Source of the DNA: Antedon mediterranea
Taxonomy: Eukaryota; Animalia; Echinodermata
DNA length: 64,000 nucleotides
Assembly (NCBI RefSeq): GCF_964355755.1
Contig: NC_092673.1
Location: forward strand, 26,285,648-26,349,647
Direction: 5' to 3'
Under the pieces are notes generated by a model. The model was not told the DNA's origin. It searched no databases and saw only the letters and a list, made by a program, of their open reading frames with translations. Shown one piece after another: positions 29,101-61,131 of the stretch. Position 1 is the first letter of the stretch. Each line of letters starts with the position of its first letter. The position numbers and the translations under genes are program-made.

Positions 29101-31487
29101 AGTGTACTTCATATGTATTCACAGTTAGTGGATGCCATGCACTATGTTCATGGTCTAGGCTTAATCCATCGAGACTTAAAAGTAAGCTCAAACTTTACAT
29201 GTGTTTTTAGTAGAAAAGATAAGAACATAACAATTAGTTGAAATCATCATCAAAATATTGCTTTTCTATAATAAATTAAATTGTGTTGATTATCGAGTAC
29301 AGTATACAAATGGAACATGACCGTAATTTCATTTTGATAATGATAACCTTTTTTAATAGCCTATAATAATATCATTTTTCCTTTTGTTTATAATATGTAT
29401 TGCTTCCTTCTCTGAACACTGACAGGAAATGTGTTTAAAAGTTGTTGAACCCTGATAATGTTAAATTCCAACTCTTAATACTGTTAGTCTTTGTGTCCAG
29501 TGCTATGAAATTAATAAGAAAGCAGGTCCCTAAACAAGAGCTAGATTTAACCTTTATGCAACCTGCTCACTGGAACTTGAGTCGTTATTGAGAAGACTTG
29601 TTCTACTATCTTGGACAGGAAAACCATCACCATTTATGGCAGTGCCCATGCTTTAACCACTTGTCCAGTTGCGACTTGTCTGGCTTACGATAAAAATAAA
29701 AAATCCCAATACCAGAAATGAAAATGTTTTAGTGCCATATTCCGAATGCAATTTCAATTATATGGAAGAATATTGAATCTCTTGATAGAAAAAATCTAAT
29801 AACAATTTTTTTCTTTTAATAACGTAGCCTTCAAATATTTTTTTCTCAAATGGTAAAACCATAAAAATTGGTGACTTTGGATTAGTAACAGCCATAGATA
29901 CACAAGTGTTAAATGTGCAATCGCCAACAACTGAGAAAGAAAACAAAGGATTTGGGGACCAACGACATACAAGCCAGGTTGGAACACAACTTTACATGTC
30001 TCCAGAACAAGTAAGAAGGCAATATCGTTTTTATAGCACATCTGGGTGTATCCTTGCCATTTGATTGGTTAATTATGCATCATGTGCCATTGATTATTTT
30101 GCACTAAAGCGTGGTTCCCACTAGCGACGCAACGCAAGGACGTAACGCAACGCAAATGAATTGACCAATCACAAGCGATGGCTTATTCGCTTGTGATTGC
30201 TAACTGTCTATAACTTCGCTTGTCATTGGTTAAAACGCTTGTGTTGCGTTTACGTCCTTGCGTTACGTTCTAGTGGGAACCAAGCTTAATGAATGATGGA
30301 CAGAATTATTAAACAGCTTTTTGTAAAAATATTTTGCAAAGGTTGTTGACTGATCCATGTTAAAAAAACAACCTGTAGTGAGGGTGCAGCTTCTATAGCT
30401 TGACTAAAGAGAGCTGACTTATTTTCAACAAAACCAATTTATTTAAAAAAATATATAATGTAATGCTAGTTATTGTATTTAATATTTATAGCTTGAGGGC
30501 AAGACATATGGAAGCAAAGTTGATATTTTTTCAATGGGGCTGATTTTCTTTGAAATGCTGTTTCCATTTTCAACAGAAATGGAAAGAATAAAGGTTGGTT
30601 ATTGACAAAAATTTAACTTTGTTATCTTTAGTCTAGGTGAATTTAAAATTGTGGCCAAAATTACGTACTGCCAATAAATTTTTTTTAAGAAACATGTTCC
30701 AAGTAACTCAACAATATTTATTATTTTGATGTTGATGGATTTTTAATTATAAGTTAGCTGTGTGCTTCAGTGTACGACCAGTTCAATACTGAATATCAAA
30801 ATGTGGCAGACTATGGGTGCTTGACCTTTGACAAGATCGCCTAAAATTTATGATTTTAGTAGTACGGTACGGTACGTAGTATTGTACATCCAGTATACAT
30901 TATATTCAAGGCTTTAATGGACCTTTTTTTTCAGACCATGTCAGATGCCAAGAAATCGCTGTTACCTAAACGATTCACAAATGAACTTTCAAATGAGGTA
31001 ATTTTTTATTTGTTTATAATTTCTGTTTCCAATTAAATTATTTGTGTCTCAATCAATTTTTGTGATACTATTTAGTAACAGGTTGTGCTTATCAATAATT
31101 ATGTTCAAACAAATTTGTGAAAAAATAGATTTGAAAGAACAACAATGTTTATATTCAAATAAGTTTTCAAATCTATTTTAAAAGAATTGAGAGTGGATTA
31201 AACAAAAGTTGATTGACTGCCATTGGACATTTGCAATGGTTGTTGCCTATAATTGCATGGTTCAGTTGCTTTCTATATGGTATCATGATCTACATTTTGT
31301 TTTTATCAATGCATTTATCATTCAGGCAATGTTGGTTAAATGGCTTCTATCCCGAGAACCAGACAAAAGACCCGATGCCGAGGAACTGATGGGTAGCGAT
31401 CTGTATGCTGATGTTTATGAAGATTATACACCACCACATCCAGTTGCTAGGAAACGATATTCTTCAAACAGCACCTCTTCCTCATAG
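20109..31487 (+). CDS. EIF2AK3: eIF2-alpha kinase 3 (PERK), 16 coding exons, about 1089 aa
   Basis: Exons 20109-20395, 21638-21761, 22864-23061, 23593-23726, 24338-24557, 25195-25345, 26010-26273, 26711-26855, 27159-27353, 27740-27862, 28121-28267, 28410-29181, 29828-30010, 30492-30593, 30935-30997, 31326-31487 are phase-compatible. Signal peptide, luminal ISTLDG / VPMLDG / WNFSVG motifs, WWKEI TM segment, kinase LGKGGFG, YAVKRI, long acidic insert, [39 protein letters not shown]. Confidence 0.97.
21791..22335. mobile_element. Non-autonomous TTAA-target DNA transposon (Kolobok-like), 545 bp, PERK intron 2
   Basis: TTAA-AGATGTATTGTCCCTTG ... CAAAGGGACAATACATCT-TTAA: TIRs starting AG with TTAA duplication. 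Superfamily inferred from TSD and termini. Confidence 0.85.
25615..25916. mobile_element. Kolobok-like non-autonomous element, degenerate left end
   Basis: Right end GGGGACAATATATCT-TTAA; internal similarity to 13087-13422. Confidence 0.6.
26291..26646. mobile_element. MITE in PERK intron 7
   Basis: GTTTCGCAACGCTATGAATATGATAATGAAAACGGATAC ... GTATCCATTTTCGTTATTGTATTCGTAGCGTTGCGAAAC inverted ends. Confidence 0.75.
30108..30286. mobile_element. Harbinger/Tourist-like MITE, 179 bp, PERK intron 13
   Basis: TAA-AGCGTGGTTCCCACTAG...CGCAAGGACGTAACGCAAC / GTTGCGTTTACGTCCTTGCG...CTAGTGGGAACCAAGCT-TAA; long TIRs with TAA duplication. Confidence 0.9.
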
Positions 31488-33939
31488 TCTTCGTAATGTA
31501 TTCTAAATATAGTTTTTTATATTTTTTTGTACATTCTAAAGTTTATAGTTTATCTCAATAAGAATAACTTTTGCTGAATCTTTTAAAGCACTTATTTCAA
31601 TTTAATTTGAAATGTATTGTATCCCAAAAGAAGCTGTGCTTATAAAAGGTTAGCTTTGATATCCTGATGGAATATGTATTGTTAGTGTTTGTGTTTTCTA
31701 CCTAGACTTTCAATCCTCCCAGAATTATATATGTTCTGAAAATGTGTTTGTGTGTCTCTGAGCCATTATACCTGGTAGATGGTATATGATCATACATTAA
31801 CTCATTCACTCACATATTTTTAAAAATTTCAATATACTGGAACTTTCAGAACGGAACTAGTATTATGTGCTGTCATGTTATGGTTAATTCTAAAACAATT
31901 CATTTCATTAGAAAGTTGTATACTACACCCAAACTGAGAGTTAAATTATATTTTGTAGTTCTTGTGCATGCCATAGGCACTATGCATAGCTGTTTGAACC
32001 CCTGTTTAATTTGATTATGAAGGTAGGATGTCTCTATGGCTTTTCTTTAGAAATGTTAACTCTTTAGAAATAATCTTTTTCTTAACTTGAATTTTAACAC
32101 ATTATTTAACTACAAACAAAAATAAGGAAATCATGGTTAAACTTTCGAATGGTATTCTTTTAGTTTTCTTATTTCAAACCAAGGTTTGTACCAATTAGAT
32201 TTAAAGCCAGTAACTTAATGTGTAATATTTGTCACTATATGGAATTAACAAAATGTAGGGAAAAAAATAATAAGACGTTATTTCAAATGAAATAATATTT
32301 ACATGAATTTCATAAATTTGTATGTAGGCATTTATCATATATTATGAGAAAAAAAACACCGGTTATATAATAAAGGCGATTAGTTTACGATTATGAATAA
32401 TTTATTTAGCTCCTTTAACATAGATGATAATATATTTTTGTAAAAGCTATACAATACTGACACATCAAGAAACCATGCATTATGCCGTTTAGTAAGTTGT
32501 AATGCCATTAAGCATTCAAGCTGTTAGAATCACTGTTATAGCTTTTACACAAAAAAAGTCATGTTTTATATTTTGTTACTCTATTGATTAAATTATTTAT
32601 TCACTAATCATGGTGTATTTAAGGCAACAATTTTAAAATTAGTAAAATTATTATGTTTCAGTATTCTGTTTAAATTATAAATGGTGTTTATACTTATATA
32701 ACTTATTAATTTATATAATATGGTGTTAATATTAAAAGTATATAAAACTAGGATAGGCACTTGAAAGACCAAAACCACGTACAAATGGCAATGTTAACTA
32801 AATATGTGATGTCTGATCTAAAAACATTATTAACAAAAATTAAATAGATAAATCATTTGATATCAAAATGCATTTATTAACCATTGAACAAGATAATATC
32901 TCAAATAAGTATAATTGTACTAAAACATTGTTAATCTGTTCTGCCTCCAATGGAGGACCAATGTGGATTAGAACTATATTATACAGGGCACAGAAAAATG
33001 GTAAATTGTTTTATTTAGTTCAGTCATTTTAAAGATATTACTCTCAGTAATTAGAACGTCAGCATTTTAACATACCAATACATAATCTGTATTTTAAGTT
33101 TGAAATATTCATGTTATAAATGAAGTAATTGTTTTATTTTTGCCCTTTTAGGGGAAATGTATCTATGAATTATTCATAGCAGCTGTAAATTATTGTACAT
33201 ATATGCGTACTACTGTTTATCAGTAATAAAATGAAAATTTAAAACTATCTGTTGTTTGTATAAGTATTGTTCCTCTTTATTTAAACGTTTCATGAATTTT
33301 AAAGTACTTATATTAAAAGAATTAGCTGAAGAATTACATACAGATTAAAATAAAATCACCTGAAAATATTGCAATATCATTTTCCACATTTTCGAACAAA
33401 ATCAACCATGTAGATTCACTAATGTAAGGTAAGTTTTATGATTCCATTTGGTGACAAATTCAATGAATTTGGGTATTCAAATTTCTACTAGTCAGTTCTA
33501 GGACTGTTTTTGCTATTTACTAATTGGTCAAAATAATTTATCTTAACAAAAACTGCTCTGTTTGTATTATCAATTCCACTAGCTTATGTATCATTTTTTC
33601 ACACAGACTATAGTTATAGTACTTCAATTTCAGGAGTACCTATCAATTTAGTAAAAAATAACTTCTTGGAATAAATATTGTTATTGCTTATTTAACAAGA
33701 TCTTAAACTACCTGATAATATAATTATTTAAAATAATTTGGAATAAATTAATTAATTTAACATTTTAAACAAATTCATTTTTTCTTTATAACAAACAAAT
33801 AGGCCTAGGTACAACTTAATATTAAAATTTAAGTTAACAGTGAGAGAGGTTGAGTTTTAAACATAAAAAACTAAAATATTTATCCAATAATATTTATAAT
33901 TTATAAATAATTTAACATATTTATTCAGGGAAACAAATA

Positions 33940-34474
33940 TTATTCCATCATAGGCTGTTGTTTATTCAGGTCATCTTTGTTGCGTTCGTGTATGGTACTT
34001 GAACATTTCTTGCAGCTTTCATCCATATTCCTGAGAGAATCCATCTTATGTGGATTGAAAGTTGTTGCCAAGTCTATATTTAGCAAATGTGATTGTACTG
34101 TAAAACAAAATAATACATAATTGAGAATGCATGACCTAGATTGGAAACATAAGAAGAACTAAAAAAAAAAGAAACATATTGACCTCAAAGTTAATGATAG
34201 ACCATCAAAAGAGAGTCATGGAAATGAATGCATGCAATGTCTACACAAATGAATGAATAGTGTAATAGATAATGATGATCAAATCAATTCATCTAAACAG
34301 TATATTTCAATTCACAATTTAGATTTGTAACCTATTTTGTAAAAGTTAAATACTGAACTTACAGGTCACTCTATTTAAAAATTCCTTGTTTTTTGCTAGC
34401 TGTCGATTTAATTCTTCAAGAGTTTTTGCTGCTGAATGATGGTTGTAACTATTTTCTGCATGCGAGCTGTCCAT
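33940..34474 (-). CDS. SYCE3: Small helical protein, SYCE3 (synaptonemal complex central element 3)-like, 89 aa
   Basis: Coding exons 34474-34363 and 34097-33940 (phase 1, gtaagt/ttttacag) give MDSSHAENSYNHHSAAKTLEELNRQLAKNKEFLNRVTLQSHLLNIDLATTFNPHKMDSLRNMDESCKKCSSTIHERNKDDLNKQQPMME. Collinear by eye with recalled mammalian SYCE3 (K.L..LN..L.K, Q.....D, NP, S.R......C). Acceptor at 34550 and donor at 35178 imply an upstream non-coding exon. Confidence 0.68.
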
Positions 34475-34604
34475 CTTTCATATCACAGATTAATTTAGTC
34501 AACATTCACAACTTAACTGAAGAAATTATCATTGGTAATTAATGACTTCCTATAAAAATATAAAGTTATACAAATTATATAGGCCTACCTGCACATTAAT
34601 ATGA

Positions 34605-34740
34605 ACTATCAAACTATTTTGACAAAAAAGTGTGATGTGCCAAAATACTGTAGTGATATGCCAAAATATGGTAGTGGCATGTGATAGGACATGTCCAAAT
34701 TATGGGCATATCACATAAATAAAGTTTGATTGTGTAGACA
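34605..34740. mobile_element. MITE family A, partial copy
   Basis: ACTATCAAACT...GTGTGATGTGCCAAAATA...AAGTTTGATTGTGTAGACA, homologous to 4704-4863. Confidence 0.75.
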
Positions 34741-35971
34741 TATTATAACCTAGCTTTTTTAGAGTCTTTACTCTTAAATAGTTAGTTTACTACTACCAGG
34801 TAGTCTAGACAAGGCCTCCTTCCCTCTACTCTCATTCTAGTATAGATAGACAGGCCCTACTACTAGCTAGCTTACTACACTAGGCCTAAACTACTACTAG
34901 GGCCTAGTACTAGCCTAGGCTAGTTAGGTCTAGCTAGAGGCTAGCCTGGCCCTAGCTAGGCCTGACTTAGCGGTAGAGGCTAGGCTAGAATGTAATTGTA
35001 AGCTGATACTAAAATAAAAGTCGGAATTTATTTTAATATATTGATTATTTCTAAATAAACGTTTTACTAAGCCTACGTCTAAATGTATTAGGTTTTAATA
35101 CGAAACTAGCTAGGCTAGGCCTAGACCAGGTATCCAACAGAATAAAAAAAACACTAGGCTAGGGTCTAGGCTACTTACTGATGAAAAAGTTTTCTTTTGG
35201 TTACTCGTTGATGGCGCTCTGCTTGTCAATCTTTTTTGCTGCTGCACGTTGCTGCTGCATCTATTTATCTGCCTGATGCCGCGCAAGACAGTACTTCTTT
35301 CTTTGCACATCGATAATTCACCGTCAAATATGCAATTACATTTTTAAAAATATAAGAAAAAAATGTTGTTGATCCTATACTTTACATGCATTAATGGAGA
35401 TAATTTTTACACCATTTTTTTCTATGTAGGCCTATACACAATGATCATAGCGCCAACGCGACGATAGTAACTTTTTTTGTCAGCAGACGACGGCTGGTCG
35501 AACGAGACTCGACTACACACAGGTGGTTGTTTTGTTGTTGTCAGTGTGTTTTTCGAGGCTATTGTAACCGTATTGTTCTTGCTTATTTAAAAATAATAAG
35601 AACTAAATTATCAATAGATATGGTTATGAAAAGTACACAATTTTAATTAAGGCTAGCCTACTTGTCCTAGACACATCTTAGTTAGGGCCCTAGGCTGGGC
35701 TAGTAGGCTACCAATACCGCCGTATTTATTAACTCAGATCAGACAGGCTGTGCGTGCACAGAGTGCTGGCTACCTAACCTCCTACCTTGGCTAGGCCTAA
35801 ACTAGATAAACATAGGCGGCGGCCATATGATAGCCTAGGCCTAGTTCATTAAAATAAAAGATTGAGTTTGAAGGTTAACAACATTTTAGATAGTCCCTAG
35901 GCCTACATTTTTTTTCAGTAGTGGCAGCTTTCTGTTTATTTAGGAAAATAGGTAGCTCTAACTAAATAAAC

Positions 35972-38900
35972 ATGGATTTAATGAGATCTCTCAGCAGTGC
36001 CTCTGTGCTAGTTGGCAAAAGGGCAGCAAGAAGTGTTTCTAGCTTCCTTGGTATCTCCTTGGAAGACAATCAATTGGAATTTTGGCAACACAAGTTTACA
36101 ACTAAAGCCAAGGTATGATTCGGAATATAATACTAGGCCTAGTACTGCATTTTGTAACGGTGTTAAACAGGTTTTTGATGAAAAAAATATTAAACAATTA
36201 TTATCTCGGCATAAAAAAAAACCTTTTTAAAACAACATTTAAAAAAAATTAATATTTTGTTATTAAATGTACTAATACTATTCATTGTAAAATTTTATTT
36301 GGGCTGTCCTTTTATCATCAGTTTTATTTATTTTTAAAACAATTTTTTTTTTTTTTTTTTGCAGAATAGACAAATTGCTCCCTCATTACTCAACCTTCTT
36401 CCAAAACGTTTCAATAACTTTGAGTTTGAAAAAATAGATAATGAAGAAACTACTTTTGGAGTTAAAAAAATCACCACTGCAGTCAGCGCTCCAAATCAGA
36501 ACAATGAAAAAGAGATGAGAAAAGGTACATGTTCAAAGAGTTACTCGGATAGCTTTGTTACGCATCATTCGCAACCTACTCAAGATATAATTCCTAATAC
36601 ACAATCTGAATGTAGGAATATTGTTTCTGAAAATCTGCAAGACAATGACGGAATTGATAAAGAAACAGCCAGTGTAGAAAGTCAGAAGAATAGCTTAATA
36701 TCTGTTCGATTTCATCCTAATGTTGATGAAAATGAGAATTTCAGCAAATTTCAAGCAAAGAAATACAATCCGGATTTGGTAATTGATAATGGTGATGATA
36801 TAGTAGTTCTAACAGACAATAGCAAGACAGACATTGAGCCATCAGGTAGTTTTAAGGATGTCGTAGGAGTACGGGAGTGTGACAAATGTAAGGGAGACTT
36901 GGAAAAGCTTAAAGAGGTTGTTAGGTTGTCCAAGCAGTCAAATGAGATTTTTCACAAACAATGGGTAATTGTGTTGTCAAATTAAAATTTTTACGAATAA
37001 TGACTAATTTCTTAAATTTAGGTAATTATACTTAAAATATTGGTAAATAAATAAAAATATTATATAATAAAATTTACATAAAATCTATACTCTTTTAGGA
37101 TTAGATTTTATGATTTGTTGATTTATCAACATTTCCAACCACGAGATCAATGGCCTCAGTGGCTCTAATTTGTCTGCCATACACCACAACCACACACAAC
37201 CTTGGATGTATATAAATTTGATACCCCCATGCTTGGGATGGCCTAATAAATATATTGTTTTCCCTAAAAAATCTGATATTCTGAATGTGCTTTTTTGTGG
37301 GGGTGGGGGTGGTAAAAAAAACTTTTGAACTTTTTAGAAAAGTCTGTTGTTAGCTGAGTCGACTGTAGTGTACGCAATATAGGGGCGCTACTGCACTTTC
37401 GCACCTAAAACTGGGCATAAGACTCGCAGCGGGTAAATGTTTTTGAATTGGTATGGTTGATAGACTGTGGTCTGAAAGTGCAGTAGCACCCAATATAGAT
37501 TAGTTTACAGCACCCGATGTAGCCATACAACATACATATTGTGCCAAAGTTTATTCATAAAATATTTTTCTTCAACAGGTAGAATCTTGGATGAGACTTC
37601 ACGAAGAAGTTAGTTTAAAAGAAGAAAAGTGCAGTGTAGAAGTCGAAGCTACTGGCTTATCGAAGGATAATAAGAATAATGAAAGTTCAATTGTAGTGAC
37701 CCCAGCTGACCAACAAGTTTACAAAGACCACAAGCCTATCTTCTCGACGTTTGTCACAGTTACGCAATTGTTTGTGTTCTCTGTTCTGTGCTACTTTGGT
37801 GGAATTGCACCAATTGGTGTTACACAACAACTAACTTATGCGGAGGGAGTAAAAACATTTATTGGAACAGAAACAATATCTGTATCTACGTATCCTAATG
37901 TATGGATCGGGCCAAATGCAAAATATTGGATAGGTACAGCAAATGTATAGTATTTTTTATACTACTTATGGTTTCATAAATCGTCTGTTTCTATGAACAG
38001 GATTTCTTCTTTTTCTATAAATACAAATTTGCGAGTTCTCATCATTTGGAAATTGACTAAAAAAAACAACAAATTAACCACATATTTTATTGGTTGTAGA
38101 ATTATTTTTAGATCCACCACTGTGAATATTTTTACAATTTTTTTTTTCAGGAGTTGGGGCAATGTATTCACCCTGTATGCGCAAAGATCATTTTATTAAG
38201 ATTGAATCTGCTAAAGATAACCTCTATTATCGGAATGAACCACTAGGATGCTGTGAGATAGATATACGCAATACAGCCGGTACAACTACAGAAAAAGAGT
38301 GCCAGAAATTGACTTATGGTATATGTATAATTTGATTTAATTATTTTAAATAGATGTAGGCCTTTTGTTATCAGAATGTATTTATCTTTTCTCCTCACTG
38401 TAGATCATAAAAAATGGGATTTCAATATTAAAGACAGGTAAGATCTAGTGAGAAAGTATAATTAAAGCAGAGAAACCTCTAGTTTATGACAACTTTATGT
38501 GATCACATAAAAATTCTGCCCAGAAGAATACAATTATTTTGGGTTACACACACTTTTTAGGCATTGGTCCTGATTCGCCAGTGGTTATATTCACGCAAAA
38601 TCTATTCTTCTTGCTGTATTTTCTGAATTTACATACGATACAGCATGCGTGTCATAGCTTACTTTCTATTTCATTTCAACAATTTAATGATTTTGCTGTT
38701 GAAAAGTGAGGGGAACAATCACCCACTAAAAAATACGTTAAGGGGGTGGGGGTTTATGTCCTCTCCTCCCCCTGGATCTCTGCCGGTTCTGTCAAACTAT
38801 TTAATAGAAACAATTTCGAGAGACTAACACTCTTTATCTTTTATATTACACTAGGTGTTGGGACATGGAGTTTGCCTGTATGCAGCGCTAGGATGGCTGG

Positions 38901-41087
38901 GTCAAACTATGTAGCTCATACCATCAGGCCTTGCTGCGTAGGCTTAACTGGCAGATGTGAAATGCTAAGCCATGAACACTGTGCGATTCTTCATGGAACT
39001 TATCACCAACGTGTTTATGAGCATTGTAGCCAGGTATACAGATGTTAAGTTAACTGTAGTTTTAACTAGTCAACATTTTAGTGTATTATTAAATAGATCA
39101 CTATATTTTAAATCTACCTTAACATGTGTAAAGTCAGTAAAAAGCCAATCTTTCTTTTAGCAGTATAATGTTTATTTGGATACTAAACTTTTCCAAGAAA
39201 CTGTTTTACATTAAAAAACGTGTTTAAAAACAAAGAAAAACTGTGACACTAATCATACAAGGTGTGCTGTATAACTTCACTTAAATCCTATGGTCTTAAT
39301 TTAATCATGGTGTTAGCGTAAACAATTAAGAAGCAAAGAATATTAAACATAATTTATATTGATATTTTATTATTATAGGTAAATTGCTTGGAAGATATAT
39401 GTACACTAGGCAAAATTAAAGTAAAAATTAACACAGGTAGGTCAATTTTGAAAATAAATTGATCTGGTCGTTTTCAATGTAATGCTAGTGCTGCAGTTGA
39501 AAATTTGTCCAAGAGAGACAGAACGTTTAAATATTTGATGCTGTGATTATACTGTGAATCACTGAGAGTGGACGAGGATCCATTATTTTTGTATTATTTA
39601 TACTGGGTGACCTCTTCATTTAAAGATTGGTCTCAGTTATGATCAGTGGCTGTGACGTACTAGTACACCGGGGTACCTCCCCTCCCCCCACACTCGTCTC
39701 AAAAGATGTACTAGTCACATGAGCTAGATGTGTACACTGGACCTACAGTTTATATCCTTCCTTATCTGTTAGACTCGTTCTACCACCAGAACCATGAAGC
39801 GAGTAAGCCTTGCCGATGTTATGGCTATGTATTTACAGTTCCACTGTCTTAACCACGCAGTCACTCACTCATTATTTATTGTGAAGCTTCAGGCTTTCCA
39901 GTGTGTAGGCACTGGCATGAGAATGTATTGTCAATTAAACTTTTTGGTTGTATTTGACAGATGGTAGATTGAACTATTTACTAATATATTCTTTCTTCTA
40001 CTAGATGCTCCAAATCAATGGTGGAGATTTTTTCTGCCTCTTTTCTACCATAATGGAATAATTCATATTCTACTTACTTCTATTGCTCAGTGGATTATAC
40101 TTCGTCCAATTGAAGCTATTGCTGGAGGTGTCCGAGTGGCCATCATATATTTTACGTGTATCTTTGCCGGAAACTTGGTAAGATTAATTTTACTATACTT
40201 AATAAGTACTACTGTACAGTTGAATATTTAGTACTGCTGGCAAATAAGTACAGCTGGCAAATAAGTACATTTACCAAATAAGCAAATCTACCAAATAAGC
40301 ACATATACCAAATAAGCACTGCTGTTGAATAAGAATGTAATAAGTACTACTGCCAAATAAGCATTACTGCTGAATTTAAAGCACTACTGCTATTCTACTG
40401 CTAAATAAGTACTACTCTAAATAAGTATTGATGCTTGATAGGGCTTCCGAATAAGCACTGCAGCCAGTTAAGTACAGAGAAAGGGTATAATACATTTGTT
40501 ATGGTTCTGTCTATTCTAACATTACAGATTGTAATGGCATAATAAACGCTTATATTTACTGTATAACAAATTGTTTGAATGACAATATTATTGTGTTTTG
40601 TACAATTTATCATTCCTTCTGTATACAGATGTCTGGTATTTTCATACCATACATGCCGCAAGTAGGAGCTACATCAGCTGTATGTGGATTTCTTGGTGTT
40701 ACGTTCATCGAAATTATCCAGTCCAAAAATCTCACGCAATCAACATTTGTTGACTTCATAAAAACTTTAACAATTCTTGCTGTTTTCCTTGTATCTGGAA
40801 CATTACCGTTTGTGGATAACTTTGCACAGATAGGCGGTTTCTTAACAGGTATTGTAACTGGTATCATATTTCTACCATACATTGTGTTTGGTAGATGGAA
40901 TGTCATGCGAAGACGTCTACTGGTGTGTGTAACTACGCCTATCCTTTTGTCTTGGTTTTTTATACTAATAGTGATGTTTTACATTGTACAAAGCAGTGAA
41001 TTTTGTAGCTGGTGTCATTATTTAAATTGCATTCCTTATACAGACTCTATGTGTAATCATACTTGGCTAACATACAAACCTTTTTAG
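35972..41087 (+). CDS. Inactive rhomboid (iRhom/RHBDF-like) protein, divergent, about 710 aa
   Basis: Exons 35972-36112, 36365-36964, 37579-37933, 38151-38318, 38855-39033, 39379-39436, 40005-40177, 40629-41087 join in frame. NVWIGP..GAMYSPCMRKD, RPCCVGLTGRCE..HCSQVNCLEDIC (iRhom homology domain), PNQWWRFFLPLFYHNGIIH, GTLPFVDNFAQIGG, CSWCHYLNCIPYTDSMC. Confidence 0.92.
37377..37497. mobile_element. Short inverted-repeat element (MITE-like), iRhom intron 2
   Basis: TATAGGGGCGCTACTGCACTTTC ... GAAAGTGCAGTAGCACCCAATATA. Confidence 0.6.
39600..39870 (-). mobile_element. tRNA-derived SINE (MetaSINE-like), iRhom intron 6
   Basis: Minus strand begins GAGTGACTGCGTGGTTAAGACAGTGGAACTGTAA (A-box/tRNA-like head), has central GGATATAAACTGTAGGTCC and an A-rich tail; a more degenerate relative lies near 29540-29670. 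Family name is inference. Confidence 0.55.
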
Positions 41088-43860: not shown

Positions 43861-46800
43861 ATGGACAAGCCAGGTAGGCCTACAGTTTTTTTGTAACAAT
43901 CAAGGCCTGCACCTCATAAAACAGCCTGGAGTGGAGCTTTAAAATATTATAACAATCGTCGTTTACAGCCTAATAATATATGTTTTTATCCTCTTCTATT
44001 GGCATATGATATTTGGATGCTCAGGGTACCTGTCTTTGTTAAACGTTAATTTTAGTAAGCTTTCTTTAATCTTTGTTTATTTATATTGTAGAAGAATATG
44101 TAATTGATTATAAAAGATCACATAGGATGTGGAGTCATCTAATGAGTATTGCTGGCGTGACCAGCTGTTTTTTGGTAGAAAGGTAAATACTTTTATTTAT
44201 ACATATTTACTACAGATTTGTTGGAGCTGCTGGTCGAACTCTGTGAAAACATTGCTAAAAAAGATGTCGAGATGCTAAGAGTCCTTTACAGAGATTTTCC
44301 AGTTTCTATAACACAGTTAGAAGGTGCTGGGTCTGCATTTGATATATTCCGACTCCTTGAAGCACCTGGTCTATTGACGCCTACTAATATCAATATTTTG
44401 ATTCAAACAATTGAGATCACAGGATTGGCCCATTTGAAGATGATAATTGAAAGGTATGCGACTTACCCTGTCACAGTTGAAATCGACATGTTTTCTAAAT
44501 TTCGTCAAGATGTGATCGATCTTGGAAAAGGCTTATCAGTTGAAGAAATTCAAAAGATCTGTCAGATATACGGATGTAGCTTTCGTTTACCATGGAAATT
44601 GATTCAACATCTTGAGAATAGCAGTGTTCTAACTAAAGAGACGTTGCCATCTTTTCTTGATACTTTGAAGTCAAGCCAAGCAACTAAAGGTAAGTCAATT
44701 CAAGAAATACCTTACCACCTCATACACCCTAAATTGGTTGTGAAATGCAAGAATAGTAAAACTGTACATCAAACAAATTGCAAGGTCGAAAAACCACATG
44801 CTGGTGAACCGAAAATGAAAGCTCTGCAAGTTACTGTAACACCTCATCGGTACTGCATTTTTTCATGTTTAACTCTTAACGGTACTGCATTTTTTCATGT
44901 TTATAAATATTTTTACAAATGTTGTAAATTTATATTTCATTTAATAATACATGGTTGTCTTGTCGTCTCATCTATATTCTCTCTCCAGCTTGTTTGTCAC
45001 TGAAGATCATACAAAGCCACACAAACAAAACAAAATTTGAATTTAACCATTATTGTCTCTTAAATATAATATAATAAAATATTATTTCTTTTTTAAATAT
45101 TAATACTAGATTTTAACAAACTGCTTTCGGATTTGTCTGAAGCTATCGAAAACAAGAGTAAAGAATATGTAAGTATGTTGAAGGTTTTATGCGCAGACCA
45201 TGTCAATGTTCAGGCAGACTTATGGAAGGCCAAAACTGCATTTGATGTATTCAAACTACTTGAAGAAGCAGGCTATTTGAAGACAACAGATATCTCTATT
45301 CTGCATGAAATGATTGTAGTAACAGGACTGGACTACTTGAAGGAGATTATTGAAAGGTATATGCAGCCATACCCAGACCAAGTGAGTGTCATACATTTTT
45401 CAGCACACCGTCACAATATAATGCATCTTGGAAAAAGCCTTTCCAACAAGCGTCTTCGTCGAATTTGCTGCAAGTATGAAGTTCCATCAAATCACCGCTC
45501 TAGATGGAAAATGATCAAATATCTTCAAGAAAACGATCGTCTTTCAGAAGAGAATATTTCAATGTTTCTTGATAAACTAAAACAAAATGAAGGTGAGTAG
45601 ATGTGGTCGAGTTCGGTTTACATAAAGAAAATAAATGACTTAAGTTCACTTTCTCTCTGGAAGTTTCCCCCGTCCACAGGCTAGCTGTAATCACCTAAAG
45701 CATTCATACGCTTTTACCAATTATATGGCGCACCAGCATAACCTTAGTAAAGTTTTTTTTTCAGAATCCGAGAGTGTAACACTAGTGAAATTCAGACGTA
45801 ATCAAGGTAATATTCTTGTGAAACTTCCCTAGTGATAATACAAAATGGTTATAATCTGGACTAGGCCATAAATAGTCCAATCGCACTTGAGAAACTCTTG
45901 ATTTGTTTTTTTTTTATAATGATGTTTTAAAATTAAATTTTGAATAATAATTATACTTTCAGACCAAACAATCAGGGATTATTTGTCATCCTGGATGAGG
46001 AGGTTGTATAAAGACGAGAACAAAATGACACCAGCCATCTGGCACGAAGGTCACACAGTAGATGTTACAAGTCTGTTTACAGACCTCAACTTGCGGCAAG
46101 TTGATGGTGACATGGTAAAATCTATTTCTATACAAGAGGAAGGTAGACCTACCATATTAAAAGAGGTGTTAGGTTTTATGAAGTCCACAGAGGCATGTAA
46201 GTTGCTTATAACAGGTAAAGGTGGAATGGGAAAAACCACCCTGCTTAAATATATTGCTCATAATTGGGCTACTGGTGTTGATGATACATTTTCTGATAAG
46301 TTAATCTTTCTGATAAATGTTAGAGATTTACACGCAAGAAAAACGATTGTAGATGCTGCTGTGAAGACAATTATGCCAGAAACTTTTAGACAAAACACCA
46401 AAATTCAGGAAGATCCTGTAAAGGTATTGGAAACATTCATAACAGACCACGATAATGAATTAGTTCTTTTGTTAGATGGCTTAGATGAGTTGGAAGAAGG
46501 TGCTACGAGTCCAATATTTTTGTTTAAAAACCTAGAATTAAGAAAAAGCAGTGTGATACTAACATCTCGTCCTGGAAATACTGCTAAGTTTGAACAATGC
46601 TGTAAAGCACACATTGAAGTTAAAGGATTCAACGCAGCTAGCATACATGAATTCATTGGTAAATATTACAAATCATGTAATAAAGTCGACCTGGGTCAAC
46701 AACTGGTAAGAAAGTTTAACCTGGATTCTATCTGCACCCATATGCGGGGCGGAAGTAACAAAGAAGCGTTTGAGTTATGCTCATCACCATTTTTGTTGCT

Positions 46801-49800
46801 CAAAATTTGTACAATCTGGGAAGAAAAACGACAACTTCCAACTGATCTGTCTGATCTTTTCAAAGATCTGATTTGTTGCATTCTAAATCAATACAGAAAT
46901 AAATCTGGGAGTGAAGCTTCAGAGTGTATAGATGAATTTGATAGAATTCCAGAGAATCAGAGGGTTGCTATTTTAGCTTTGGGAAAGTACACGTATGAAG
47001 GCTTAAAAACAAATAAACTGACAATTGATCGATTTCTTTTGAAGGAAATGGTGAAGGATGATGAGTTAGTTAAACTAGCACTTGAACCAGGATTTGTTTA
47101 CAAAGAGAACCCAGTTGCTCATGATGATCTCAAACAGATTTATACACCTCCGCACAAGTTGATCTCAGAGGCAGTAGCAGGATTCTACCTTTCTGTCCAG
47201 ATTGATAATGATACTCTGGATGCAGACGAGTTCCAGATATTAAGATCAAACGAGTATTTGCATATGACAAGGATATTTGCAATAGAGTTCTTAGGTGTCA
47301 ATGCTGGTGAATTGTTGAAGCATTGGTTAACAAATGAAGCCTCTAATTACTTCTCATTAGCACAATATTTTAGATATGTTAAAGAGAAATACAAAAAAGA
47401 TGTGCTTAATAACCTGGATAAAGTCATGTCACCTCCAATGAGAAGAAAATGTTCTGAAATGCGCGAGACATTTAGAATGGTTCTATGTTTTCAGAATGAA
47501 GACGGGCAACAAAACCTGGGTAAACATGAACATTTATTACAGATGATGAGCGACTGCTTTGTTAAATACGAAAGCAAACGTGAGAAACTTGTCCAGCTCA
47601 TGTTATCACAAAAATCTACAGAGACTATAGATGTTCTTACAAGTTTAGTCCACATTTTAATCATGATAGACGGACTTTATGGTAGTCACTTTTGTATACA
47701 CAAATCATATTTTGAGTATCTAGCACAACTGACTGATGATGATATTAATGTTCTTACCGAAAAAATGGAAGAAATTAAGTTCACATACAGTTCAGATAAG
47801 TTTAGTTTTGATAAGTTTAAAGCACCTAATCAAAAGAAGCTGTTAAGTTCTAAGTTTGTTAGCCATGTGCTAAATACCAGCAGCAATTTGAGATTCCTGA
47901 CTTTAAATTGTGTGAAGGGTTGTACATTGAATGCCGTTTTTTCTGATCTCAACAATGACAAAGAATCATTCTTCAAATTAGAATACATTTGTTTTAGAAA
48001 CAATGATTTAAGTGATTTCGATGGTTTATCACTAGTAATCTTATTTCAGACCACTCCAAAATTGAGAGAACTTGATATGAGTGATTGTAATTTATCTGGT
48101 GGGATTGTTAATACAGTTGTCAACGAATTAGAAAGTCGCCAGATAAAATTATTCTTACCTTCACTGATAGTATCCCACAATTATTTTGAAGATACCGATG
48201 GTGCATCTTTTGCTACTTTGATTAGGTTTGCTCCTGAGCTTAAATATCTAGATATCGGGTCTTGTTCTCTGACTACAAAGTTTTTAAGTAACTTGTTGGA
48301 TGAATGTGATAGAAATGGAGTTCTTCTCAGCGATCACTTACTCAACCTAACAGGCAACAAATTTGTGGATATTAATGGTGCATCACTGGTTAAATTGGTA
48401 AAATTGAGTGGGCAATCGTTCAAATGGAACGATTACAGTCTTTCAGTGGCTAACTTTGAAAGTCTTCTTTCATATGTATGTGAAATCGATTGTAGAGTTA
48501 CATTGCCATGGACAAAGTTGAACATAAGTGGACTTGACCTAAGCTCAATAATTGCAGAAGCATTAGCCTGTTTATTTGAGAGATCTCCCAACTTGTGCAA
48601 ACTTAGTATGGACAATTGTAATCTGTCTGGTAGTGTTATGAGTGATGTATTAGACAATTGTGAAGCAAATGGTGTTGTATTGAAAGAGAACATCCTTAGT
48701 CTGAAAGGCAACAATCTATCGGACATTGATGATATGTCACTTTCTGCATTGTTAAATTTGATCTGTCTGTCTGACAACACAAGGAAAGGTAGACGAGATA
48801 GAATGGATTCATCAATAGATCATGAAACCTTTCTTCAATGGAGCGATTACTCTTTTTCAACTAGTAACCTAACGGGCATGATAAATGTAAGCATGCTGGA
48901 TTCTGATGATCCATTTTCATGGAGACGATTGGATTTAAGTGGTAACAACTTGGCTTCTATCACTGGCAACATGTTTGTTACTTTGCTCAAGCTGTCCCCG
49001 CAACTTAATTATCTTAAAATGAACAATTGCAGTTTGTCAGGTAAATGCATCAAAAACATATTAGATGAATGCGAGAAGAATGGTATCAAGTTAAACGGCA
49101 ATATTAGACTGAGTTTGAAAAGCAATGACCTGTCTGATATTGATGATGTCACACTTGTGGAAGTCGTGGGCTTCAGTGGTAAATCTTTTGAATGGAGTGA
49201 ATACTCTCTATCCTCTACAAACCTTCGAGACTTTCTAAGTAGAGTTCATGACAAATTGATGTGGCAAAATTTGGATTTAAGCGATGTTGATCTTAGTTTA
49301 TTGGAAGCGAAATCATTATTTGATCTTTTCAAAGTCTCACCAAAGTTAAAAGTATTCAATATGAATAGATGTCATCTGCAGAGCAATGTGTTGGCAGATG
49401 TTTTCAACAGATGTCAAGAAAGCAACATGATTTTGAGTTTAACTGATCTGTTTTTGAAGGGCAATGATTTCCATGGTCTTGATAGCGACACATTTTCTAC
49501 ACTGACACGGTGCATTCCTGATCTAGAGAAACTTGACATGAGTGATTGTAAACTCACCTGCAGCATCATGAAAGACCTTCCGATGTCATCTTCAAACAAA
49601 ATCCAATTGAAGTCATTACAAGCCATAAACTTATCTGGTAATAACTTCAAAGAGCTTACAAAAGCAGTAATTACTACCTTCTCTAACTGTTTTCCTGCAT
49701 TGGAACACCTTGTAATGAGAAGTTGTAATCTACCAGTTGGCATGGTGCAATATTTACCTGAAATGGCATCAAAAAGGAATATTCCCCTAACGTTAACATC

Positions 49801-50449
49801 AATTGACATCGGAGGAAATGATCTTAGCAAAGTTAAATGGGCGACATTCTCTTCACGCATTTCCAAGTCAACTCAACTTAAAGTCGTTAAGTTAGATAGT
49901 TGTCACTTGCCAAGTACCTTTCTATATGACATAGAAAGAGTTTTCTCAAGGAGAGAACTTAAGTTAAGGTTGACCGATATATTCCTGCATCATAATGATT
50001 TGAGTAACTTGAAAAAGGATGTGGTAGTCTCAATATTGTCAGCACTTCCTAGCCTGATGCGTTTATATTTAGATAACTGTAATCTAAAAAGTAAAGATTT
50101 GCTGGCATTAATTGAAGCATTTTCAGAGATAGGATCAAGACGGTTACTTCGTGTATTCAACACACTTCGACTTCACAAAAACGACTTTAGTGACATTGAT
50201 GGAATGTCACTCGCTTTGCTGTTTAAATCTGTATATTCTCTGTGTTCCCCATATTTGTTGAGTTTTATCCCCCAACTCGTGATACTATCATCTTGTGGAC
50301 TAAATGATGGTATTATTGTGGATATGGTCAACTCATGGCAGGTTGAGACAAATGCTTTTAAATTGACAATTGATGATAACAACATTGCTGATAAAGATGC
50401 AATTAAAAGAAAACTGAAGGGCATCATTGCAGAACTGGATGATTTTTAA
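43861..50449 (+). CDS. NLR-family protein: (DED-DED)x2 - NACHT - LRR, about 1818 aa
   Basis: Phase-1 exons 43861-43873 (MDKP; start least certain), 44216-44689, 45110-45592, 45963-50449. DED-like LL.EL.E......L..L....AFD.F.LLE..G.L...NI..L; Walker A GKGGMGKTT, Walker B LVLLLDGLDEL, VILTSRP, CSSPFLL, HKLISEAVAGFYL; many LxxLxLxxCxL / LxxNxL LRRs. Confidence 0.92.
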
Positions 50450-59300: not shown

Positions 59301-61131
59301 AGAATCCACACAATGATTGTAACAAGGTTTGTTTTTTTCTAGAATGAAACAAGGAGAGTACAAAATACAAAAACACCATAGTTAATGAATACGGGTTGGC
59401 TGTAGTTTTTATATATGCCTGGATAATAGGGAAATAAATGAGAGTATCTTACCCAACTGATGTTAGCCAGTTTGACTTGCATGTTTTGGGAGTAGCTAAA
59501 TATATACATCTTTCCCTAAAATAAAGAAATAAGTACCAAATACAAATCAATCAACATTTCAAAAGTTTATGCAAAAAACTAGTAGTATGAAGTTGTTTTG
59601 AGCAACTCTACATTGTAACCAAATATTTGACCCTGCATTTATTTAAGACTAGTGTGCAAGTTGGAATACTACTAGCCTAACAATAACATTATTCAAAATT
59701 TGTATTTAAGCTTTCCTACCGTCCTCTGAGATCCTGATTGTTTCTACTCTGTGGTTCACGATTTATCAAAACTGGAAGATAAAGCAAATCAAAAATGTAA
59801 TGACCAAGACAATAGAATACCCTACAAGAAAAAAAAAGTTTCTTCAGATTCCTTTATGATTTAAACTTATCAATATTACTGCTTATTTCCTTTTATCTCC
59901 CCAAGCTAGATTTTCGGCATAATTATATGTTGCACTTATTTTAATTAATGTGAGGAGCATTGCACACATTTATTATGTTGTAGCAAGACATTAGTAATTT
60001 ACAATTTAAGATAGGACATGAAATTAAGCTTAGCCCTTCATTTCACCATTTTTAGACCCTAATCTCTCCCCCCCCCCCCCCCATCATAATTCCTGGATCC
60101 GCCACTGGATGTTGTAAGTCTGTGATATAAATGCAGGCCTTGACAATTATGGCAATAAAAAAGGTGTTATCAGGTTTGAAAAACAACAAAATTGACATAC
60201 ACCAATCAAAGGTAATTTACAAGGTGTGCTTGGAAACCTTAGAATTGAAAGGGTATCCTGTAACCATGTCTAAATCCAAATATTGATTTGAAGAACTGAT
60301 GCTACAGTATCTCTTTGATAAAACATGTTTAGCTTATTGCTGGTACTAAGGATCTTTTGAACACCAATCAATATTTTAGTAATGCATTGATTAATCAAAG
60401 TTCTTTTATTTAATTGCACTTGAATATTGATCTTTTTTGTATTGTGTTACGTCCATTCCAATTCAACCATTGCGTTAGGCCAGTTATTTTAAACCAGGTT
60501 GGGAAAATAAGATTTGGGACGTCAAATAATCAATGAGTCACTTATTTAAGATTGACTTTATTGTCAAATAATAATAATTTGGTTTCTTCAAGGGGGCGTC
60601 GATAACATTTACAAAAAGGTAAAATTCTAGGCATATGAATGATGTAAAAAGTTGTACGGTAACAACTATACAATATTAATTATTGTCATTTTAACAAAAA
60701 CACATTGTGTGCATTTTTTTCCCACAATTCCTTTCCACTATAGCCTATCATAATTGTGCCATGAAGCTCCTTACAATAATTTGCGATCTGCGATAAACCT
60801 TATTCTATTTATTATCCTACTAGGCCTAGGGCCTAGTATTATTAACAACACTCCGATCCTACTTCTTGGGCTGGACTCCTGAGTCCTAGGGTTTAGGTTC
60901 TACTAGGCATAGTTAGGCGAGGCATATTATTTTATAGGCTAGGCCTAGGGCCAGGCGCGCCTACCTAGAGAGGGCCTCTAACTAGGCCTATAGGCTCTAG
61001 CCTAGGCTCTAGCTACTCTATCTAGCTCGGGCCAGGCCTAACTAAAAAAAGCCCTTTTGGGCCTTTTTACATAGCGGCTAGGCCTATGTCTAGCTTATTA
61101 ATTAGGTCTTTTTACCTTCAACATCCGCCAT
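56338..61131 (-). CDS. THEG-repeat protein (testicular haploid expressed / sperm microtubule-associated protein 2-like), about 316 aa
   Basis: Exons 61131-61116, 59771-59720, 59515-59453, 58739-58605, 58291-58154, 57852-57711, 57364-57251, 56628-56338 are phase-compatible. Repeats of W.VS..A..A..S.RL..LA.PK, plus WGNQEMMWPLS and SCGRESPIW. THEG versus THEGL not resolvable. Confidence 0.9.
56951..57194. mobile_element. MITE with long TIRs in the last intron of the THEG-like gene
   Basis: TACCCTTTCCACATCTG..TGTAACAAGTTGTAACCAGGTTTG ... CAAACCTGGTTACAAGTTGTTACA..CAGATGTGAAAAGGGTA; TTA/TAA flanks. Confidence 0.8.
57452..57631. mobile_element. MITE family A copy
   Basis: Same TIRs and internal CACTACCATATTTGGG subrepeats as 4704-4863. 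Confidence 0.88.
58347..58500. mobile_element. MITE family A copy, opposite orientation, damaged right end
   Basis: AGCTCTGTCTACACTATCAAACTAGTTTGACAAAAAAGGTGTGATGTGG...CATATATGGGCACATCACATTTTTTTGTCACATAAAGTTTGA. Confidence 0.85.

Follow-up and report, generated by a model that had tools for sequence, protein, structure and literature searches.

Positions 33940-34474 of a 64,000-nucleotide stretch of Antedon mediterranea DNA (the window) encode an 89-residue protein from an invertebrate family. We propose with good confidence that this family is a likely orthologue of vertebrate SYCE3, with a predicted meiotic role as a small adapter of the synaptonemal-complex (SC) central element. The SYCE3 identity suggested for this gene in an initial annotation is backed by the match of a family profile to mouse SYCE3 (PDB 4r3q) and by a shared intron; the link of the window protein itself to SYCE3 is transitive, because the spliced product was scored only against family profiles.

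Gene model and family membership

The window is intron-rich animal sequence of 33% GC, and the candidate gene and all of its elements lie on the minus strand. Coding exon 1 (34474-34363, 112 nt) begins with an ATG at 34474, contributes 37 codons plus one nucleotide, ends at a GTAAGT donor, and covers the short N-terminal segment and the greater part of predicted helix 1. The 265-nt GT-AG intron (34362-34098, 3' end TTTTACAG) interrupts codon 38 in phase 1 and is followed by coding exon 2 (34097-33940, 158 nt including a TAA stop codon), which encodes the end of helix 1, a loop with conserved P53, and helix 2 with C66-x-x-C69. The 89-residue spliced product contains no internal stops. Among 15 open GT-AG options with the same ATG and stop, ranked against a profile built without the window sequence, the 34363/34097 pair scored highest (78.2 bits versus 71.0 for the next), and the alternative pairs between ATG and stop were rejected for their lower profile scores. 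The two-coding-exon, 89-residue reading frame with canonical splice sites that had been described initially is thus real. Its start is uncertain because the ATG is directly preceded by an AG and the N-termini of many relatives extend further, and the gene may have an upstream coding exon. A candidate AATAAA polyadenylation signal at 33925-33920, 15 nt 3' of the stop, was read from sequence only and is weak in this AT-rich region.

Other haplotypes carried three coding substitutions (one silent, D57E, and M88V), all off conserved columns, and no coding indels or stops; the three indel rows all fell outside the exons. Such low counts do not permit a test. No RNA run listed contained the gene, and a look for tissue data on its relatives gave none. 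In one probable same-species RNA run, a contig links two segments of the kinase gene next to the candidate; the same run had no contig over the candidate exons and carries no information on expression.

Searches of Pfam and PDB sequences with exon 1 alone or exon 2 alone did not find SYCE3, a word-seeded homologue search with exon 2 found no homologue, and exon 2 had no usable match in the Atlas, a language-model search. Exhaustive phmmer comparison of exon 2 with 1.84 billion representatives identified six proteins of 70-113 residues at E ≤0.001, and the clusters that they represent contain Magallana gigas K1QER4 and Ptychodera flava XP_070540928.1. Two rounds of profile searching then accepted 23 of 157 and 51 of 1034 candidates as family members. 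The named members, all labelled 'uncharacterized' or 'hypothetical', come from a chiton, bivalves, gastropods, sea urchins, and one hemichordate, and include the gastropod proteins Haliotis rufescens XP_046365190.1 and Pomacea canaliculata XP_025095783.1 and the sea-urchin proteins Strongylocentrotus purpuratus XP_011671655, Lytechinus pictus XP_054766059, and Diadema setosum XP_072177453.1. No vertebrate SYCE3 or other vertebrate protein was present among the 51 word-seeded family matches.

The window gene belongs to this mollusc/echinoid/hemichordate family. Profile A3, built from seven spliced invertebrate relatives without the window sequence, scored the spliced product at 78.7 bits in an ungapped match over residues 6-79 (74 residues), compared with a maximum of 9.6 bits for shuffled controls (0 of 2000 reached 78.7) and 6.2 bits for the reversed sequence. 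Two of the seven A3 members came from the exon-2 search, which makes this profile circular for exon 2; exon 1 was used in no profile-building search, and exon 1 alone scored 14.9 bits against A3 (equalled by 0 of 2000 shuffles), with a pairwise hhalign E of 1.6e-4 at 50% probability. When A3 was compared with 2819 six-frame segments of the window, the candidate exon frames ranked first (E 1.4e-16) and second (exon 1, E 0.001). A profile of 11 named molluscs, with no member from the first exon-2 search, scored the whole product at 68.2 bits and exon 1 at 13.3 bits, values that none of 1000 shuffles reached in either case. The corresponding values for a profile of three sea urchins were 39.0 bits for the whole product (0 of 1000 shuffles) and 1.4 bits for exon 1 (37 of 1000 shuffles), and this profile does not back exon 1 alone. 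Over kept columns, the window protein was 22-36% identical to family members, with which it shares the same ungapped core, loop motif, and CxxC; most members differ from it in having longer, variable termini. The placement of the window protein was not recovered in a tree of 22 invertebrate rows, where its end branch (0.88, compared with a median of 0.67) was not flagged as long.

Homology of the family to SYCE3

Homology of the family to SYCE3 is supported by a profile search of the PDB, repeated sub-threshold Pfam matches, a language-model search, and a common intron position and phase. First, in a search of 177,635 PDB sequences, the best match to A3 was mouse SYCE3 (4r3q), at E 3e-7 over residues 8-80, and the next match was at E 0.38. 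The same entry was top for profiles A2 (E 1.1e-4, next 0.046), A4 (E 3.2e-8, next 0.86), and A5 (E 6.5e-6, next 0.99). The near gap-free register that the initial annotation had drawn by eye is also the HMMER register against 4r3q, with one gap in the loop. SYCE2 (PDB 6R17) and other central-element coiled coils are likewise short helical SC proteins, but they matched weakly (E 0.63 for the Ptychodera protein, 4.6 for A2); the SYCE2 match was not significant, and the larger profiles A3, A4, and A5 did not list it at all. In pairwise comparisons, the Ptychodera protein matched 4r3q at E 0.07 and SYCE2 at E 0.63.

Second, the Pfam family PF15191 (Synaptonemal_3) matched 11 of 21 full-length members at E ≤0.1, with a best value of 1.1e-5; the other ten, including all three named sea urchins, had no match at this threshold, and no member of the 21 reached the gathering cut-off of 27 bits (top score 25.6). 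Any other Pfam family matched at most four of the 21. Stray matches to zf-LITAF-like and Phage_T4_Ndd were rejected as sub-threshold and not recurrent. Of the profile check proposed initially, one direction succeeded, as the family profile leads to mouse SYCE3, but the reverse matches from PF15191 all fell below its cut-off. Third, when residues 40-113 of the Ptychodera protein were used to search the Atlas, the three best clusters carried PF15191 (scores 0.91, 0.89, and 0.87); four of the ten best family-bearing matches share the top family, a fraction below the tool's own benchmark and treated by it as a warning, although that benchmark had not been measured on parts of proteins. Below the SYCE3 clusters, the Atlas list also held C4orf46 (0.86), BORCS7 (0.81), BORCS8 (0.76), and GCN5L1 (0.75), which are possibly generic small helical proteins or reflect a remote link of SYCE3 to BLOC-1/BORC subunits.

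Finally, the family and mouse SYCE3 have an intron in common. Mouse Syce3 is described as having two coding exons (PMC3102746), and a repair oligonucleotide that spans its acceptor contains a T-rich tract, an AG, two bases, and then the Q38-A39-T40-W41 codons (Supplementary Table 1 of PMC7614228). Translation of the bases 5' of this AG does not give the residues found before V37 in 4r3q, so the layout of the acceptor puts a phase-1 mouse intron within codon V37, a position read by eye from the acceptor side only. Alignments place mouse V37-Q38 on L38-Q39 of the window protein, whose intron splits codon 38, and the comparison with vertebrate SYCE3 that had been suggested initially thus found the same aligned codon and the same phase 1 as in mouse. 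Within the family, seven pairs of relatives' gene calls, one spliced and one read-through, were matched by similarity, and in all seven the two sequences begin to differ at this codon, with the intron position taken from proteins rather than DNA. The intron match lends independent support to SYCE3 homology; position and phase are unrelated to protein composition. As a separate observation on these gene calls, five from one lineage (P0001, P0015, P0018, P0020, and P0021) have an in-frame intron of ~15-18 codons at the conserved position that the gene caller read through, and P0016 is the spliced form at that position.

Predicted structure, proposed role, and alternatives

The window protein resembles mouse SYCE3 (4R3Q/6H86) in length (89 versus 88 residues), in its two coding exons and phase-1 intron in the aligned codon, in its near gap-free alignment over residues 8-80, and in its two predicted helices around a proline loop. 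Mouse residues L18, N22, L25, Q38, D45, N52, P53, S58, R60, and C69 are kept in the window protein, and mouse P53 aligns with window P53. Across the 21 relatives, L26, L43, D46, T49, P53, C66, and C69 (window numbering) are invariant, and mouse D45, P53, and C69 are invariant in all 21 and in the window protein; the invariance of the loop is partly a product of search seeding on loop words. Differences from mouse SYCE3 are the sub-cut-off standing of the family in Pfam and, in the window protein, a loop that is one residue shorter and changes at Y11 (H12), L15 (A16), W41 (L42), Y44 (I45), and F66 (C66). The helix-2 CxxC that includes this last change is present in 21 of 21 relatives, and mouse SYCE3 has the second cysteine only. 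Two positions also set the window protein apart from its relatives, namely T50 in the loop (Q in 21 of 21) and A16, where most relatives have M or L.

The aromatic W41/Y44 and Y11/L15 surfaces, a functional feature of the mammalian protein, are absent from the window protein, and the replacement of the vertebrate W and Y reported initially holds at both positions. Residues at the W41 position are hydrophobic in 20 of 21 relatives and those at the Y44 position in 21 of 21, with an aromatic side chain in none; the Y11 position is Y in 6 of 21. Loss of these surfaces marks a variant and is compatible with orthology, and the lateral self-assembly surface likely differs from that of mouse. An AlphaFold2 model of the abalone member, calculated with a 21-row alignment, had helices at 8-56 and 59-87 with a break at the proline (mean pLDDT 87, pTM 0.44); the helices published for SYCE3 span residues 10-48 and 55-85. 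A Foldseek search with this monomer model gave no match, and a wide search returned nothing more specific than long generic helices (best Z 6.7, rmsd 6.1, 85 residues aligned). A single-sequence model of exon 2 had helices at 9-12 and 15-45 with a pLDDT of 72.

By analogy with the mouse and human proteins, two helices (~11-49 and 55-80) on either side of the P53 loop would form an antiparallel four-helix dimer. Opening of the loop would then produce an extended chain along the N-terminal coiled coil of SYCP1 in a 2:1 complex, and this chain would remodel the SYCP1 lattice and recruit SYCE1-SIX6OS1 and SYCE2-TEX12. Extended SYCE3 is reported to bind the SYCP1 core with this 2:1 stoichiometry, to remodel the lattice, and to recruit both of these partner complexes (PMC7614228). 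In the same source, the W41/Y44 surface is needed in vitro for higher-order assembly and, according to a figure title, in mice for SC assembly, and a WY mutant of SYCE3 retains SYCP1 binding and loses assembly (PMC7614228). Because the WY mutant still binds SYCP1, loss of W and Y need not abolish the adapter role. As a conjecture, the CxxC near the middle of helix 2 might link two chains, either by binding zinc between them or by forming disulfides.

Three alternatives bear on this proposal. Coincidental resemblance to SYCE3 among short coiled-coil proteins is largely refuted and, in our estimate, has almost no remaining probability: the pairwise matches are weak, the Pfam matches are all sub-threshold, and a heptad pattern alone can match short helical proteins, but E 3e-7 is six orders below the next match in a PDB library rich in coiled coils, the matched residues include the non-heptad D45, N52-P53, and C69, and the position and phase of the intron do not depend on protein composition. 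It is only slightly less improbable, and still very unlikely, that the family is SYCE3 and the copy in this species is silent or decaying. T50 at an otherwise invariant loop glutamine, A16 where most relatives have M or L, and the lack of any observed spliced transcript would fit such a copy; the frame is open, the splice sites are canonical, and both exons retain conserved residues, all of which argues otherwise, as do the end branch, which was not flagged as long, and the haplotype substitutions, which avoid conserved columns and include no coding indel or stop, in numbers too few for a test.

More weight, albeit still at low probability, attaches to the idea that the family is homologous to SYCE3, as an ancestral or sister small helical protein, and does another job, perhaps metal binding through the CxxC, with SC recruitment confined to vertebrates. 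SYCE3 is the sole clear PDB match and the commonest Pfam match, the intron is common to the family and mouse SYCE3, and the partners are present, as SYCE1, SIX6OS1, SYCE2, TEX12, and SYCP1 are all reported outside vertebrates (PMC13693662), each of which favours the SC adapter over another job. The other-job explanation draws on the missing aromatic W41/Y44 surface, on a CxxC that is invariant in invertebrates only, on the C4orf46, BORCS7, BORCS8, and GCN5L1 entries also listed by the Atlas, and on Nematostella mutants, which show role changes in conserved SC proteins (PMC13693662 and its preprint).

Evolutionary range and genomic surroundings

Published work dates SYCE3 differently. PMC4132317 (2014) reports that Fraune et al. 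concluded SYCE3 to be vertebrate-specific, and PMC13693662 (Science Advances, October 2026) and its preprint, which used blastp and tblastn, list SYCE3 as missing in Nematostella; the SYCE3 alignment in PMC13693662 is titled 'from vertebrate species' and the others 'various metazoan species'. The literature view cited in the initial annotation, that SYCE3 is a vertebrate addition, therefore stands in these sources, and the Fig. S5 tree of PMC13693662 may bear on it. No report of an invertebrate SYCE3 was found in the literature covered, which ran to October 2026 and included few subscription journals, and passages of PMC12706140 and PMC8598163 contained nothing further on invertebrate SYCE3. 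The five supplementary files of a scallop gonad transcriptome paper contained neither the scallop locus identifier nor SYCE3. The Ptychodera protein already bears a precomputed PF15191 mark from automatic annotation, and the top Atlas cluster is 55% PF15191, consists mostly of chordates, and takes its automatic name from a Timema protein, which hints at insect members. Some invertebrate members may thus already stand unremarked in databases.

The range of the family contradicts the published dating of SYCE3. Because the family includes protostomes (molluscs), its origin is likely bilaterian and older than the deuterostomes, and SYCE3 likely dates to the protostome-deuterostome ancestor. The deuterostome origin put forward initially would accordingly move back to that ancestor, as many molluscs carry the family. 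Of the mammalian central-element proteins, only SYCE3 is still described as confined to vertebrates in the sources covered. If the family is truly orthologous, then the whole central-element set would date at least to the bilaterian ancestor, and the absence of SYCE3 from fly and nematode would reflect loss or divergence. The family also gives a better profile for cnidarian searches, and its natural lack of W41/Y44 would allow the idea that this surface was refined in vertebrates to be tested directly. A broader reading, which we regard as tentative and somewhat doubtful when taken as a whole, is that SYCE3 is an ancient part of the animal central element with a cnidarian orthologue, that it was missed outside vertebrates across a gap not bridged by BLAST, and that an ancestral form without the W/Y surface used its invariant CxxC as a zinc or disulfide clasp between chains, exchanged in vertebrates for aromatic lateral assembly.

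Genes marked elsewhere in the window by Pfam matches are TMEM129, a protein kinase that we read as PERK-like, a gene with a rhomboid domain, one with DED and NACHT-LRR matches, a GPCR, and a gene for a zinc-finger protein. Four of the window's open reading frames were absent from the protein collection searched. At 31324-33579 (plus strand), contigs of the probable RNA run X5 extend beyond the last exon of the kinase gene to ~33579, and the 3' UTR of this gene may converge on the 3' end of the candidate gene. The palindrome TAGGCCTA occurs in 18 copies in the window, compared with 0.5 expected; eight copies lie at 34580-36141, upstream of the candidate gene and toward the rhomboid-domain gene on the opposite strand, and others lie at 60821-61086. 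The 34580-36141 cluster suggests a common head-to-head promoter region for the candidate and rhomboid-domain genes. Short repeats present in many copies, where contig depth is very high and loose ends are numerous, were seen at ~30105-30289, 34605-34740, and 39594-39716, one of them ~130 nt upstream of the candidate ATG. An NLR-like immune-receptor gene at 44179-50446 (plus strand) consists of one or more DED exons followed by a 1501-codon frame that matches NACHT and LRR.
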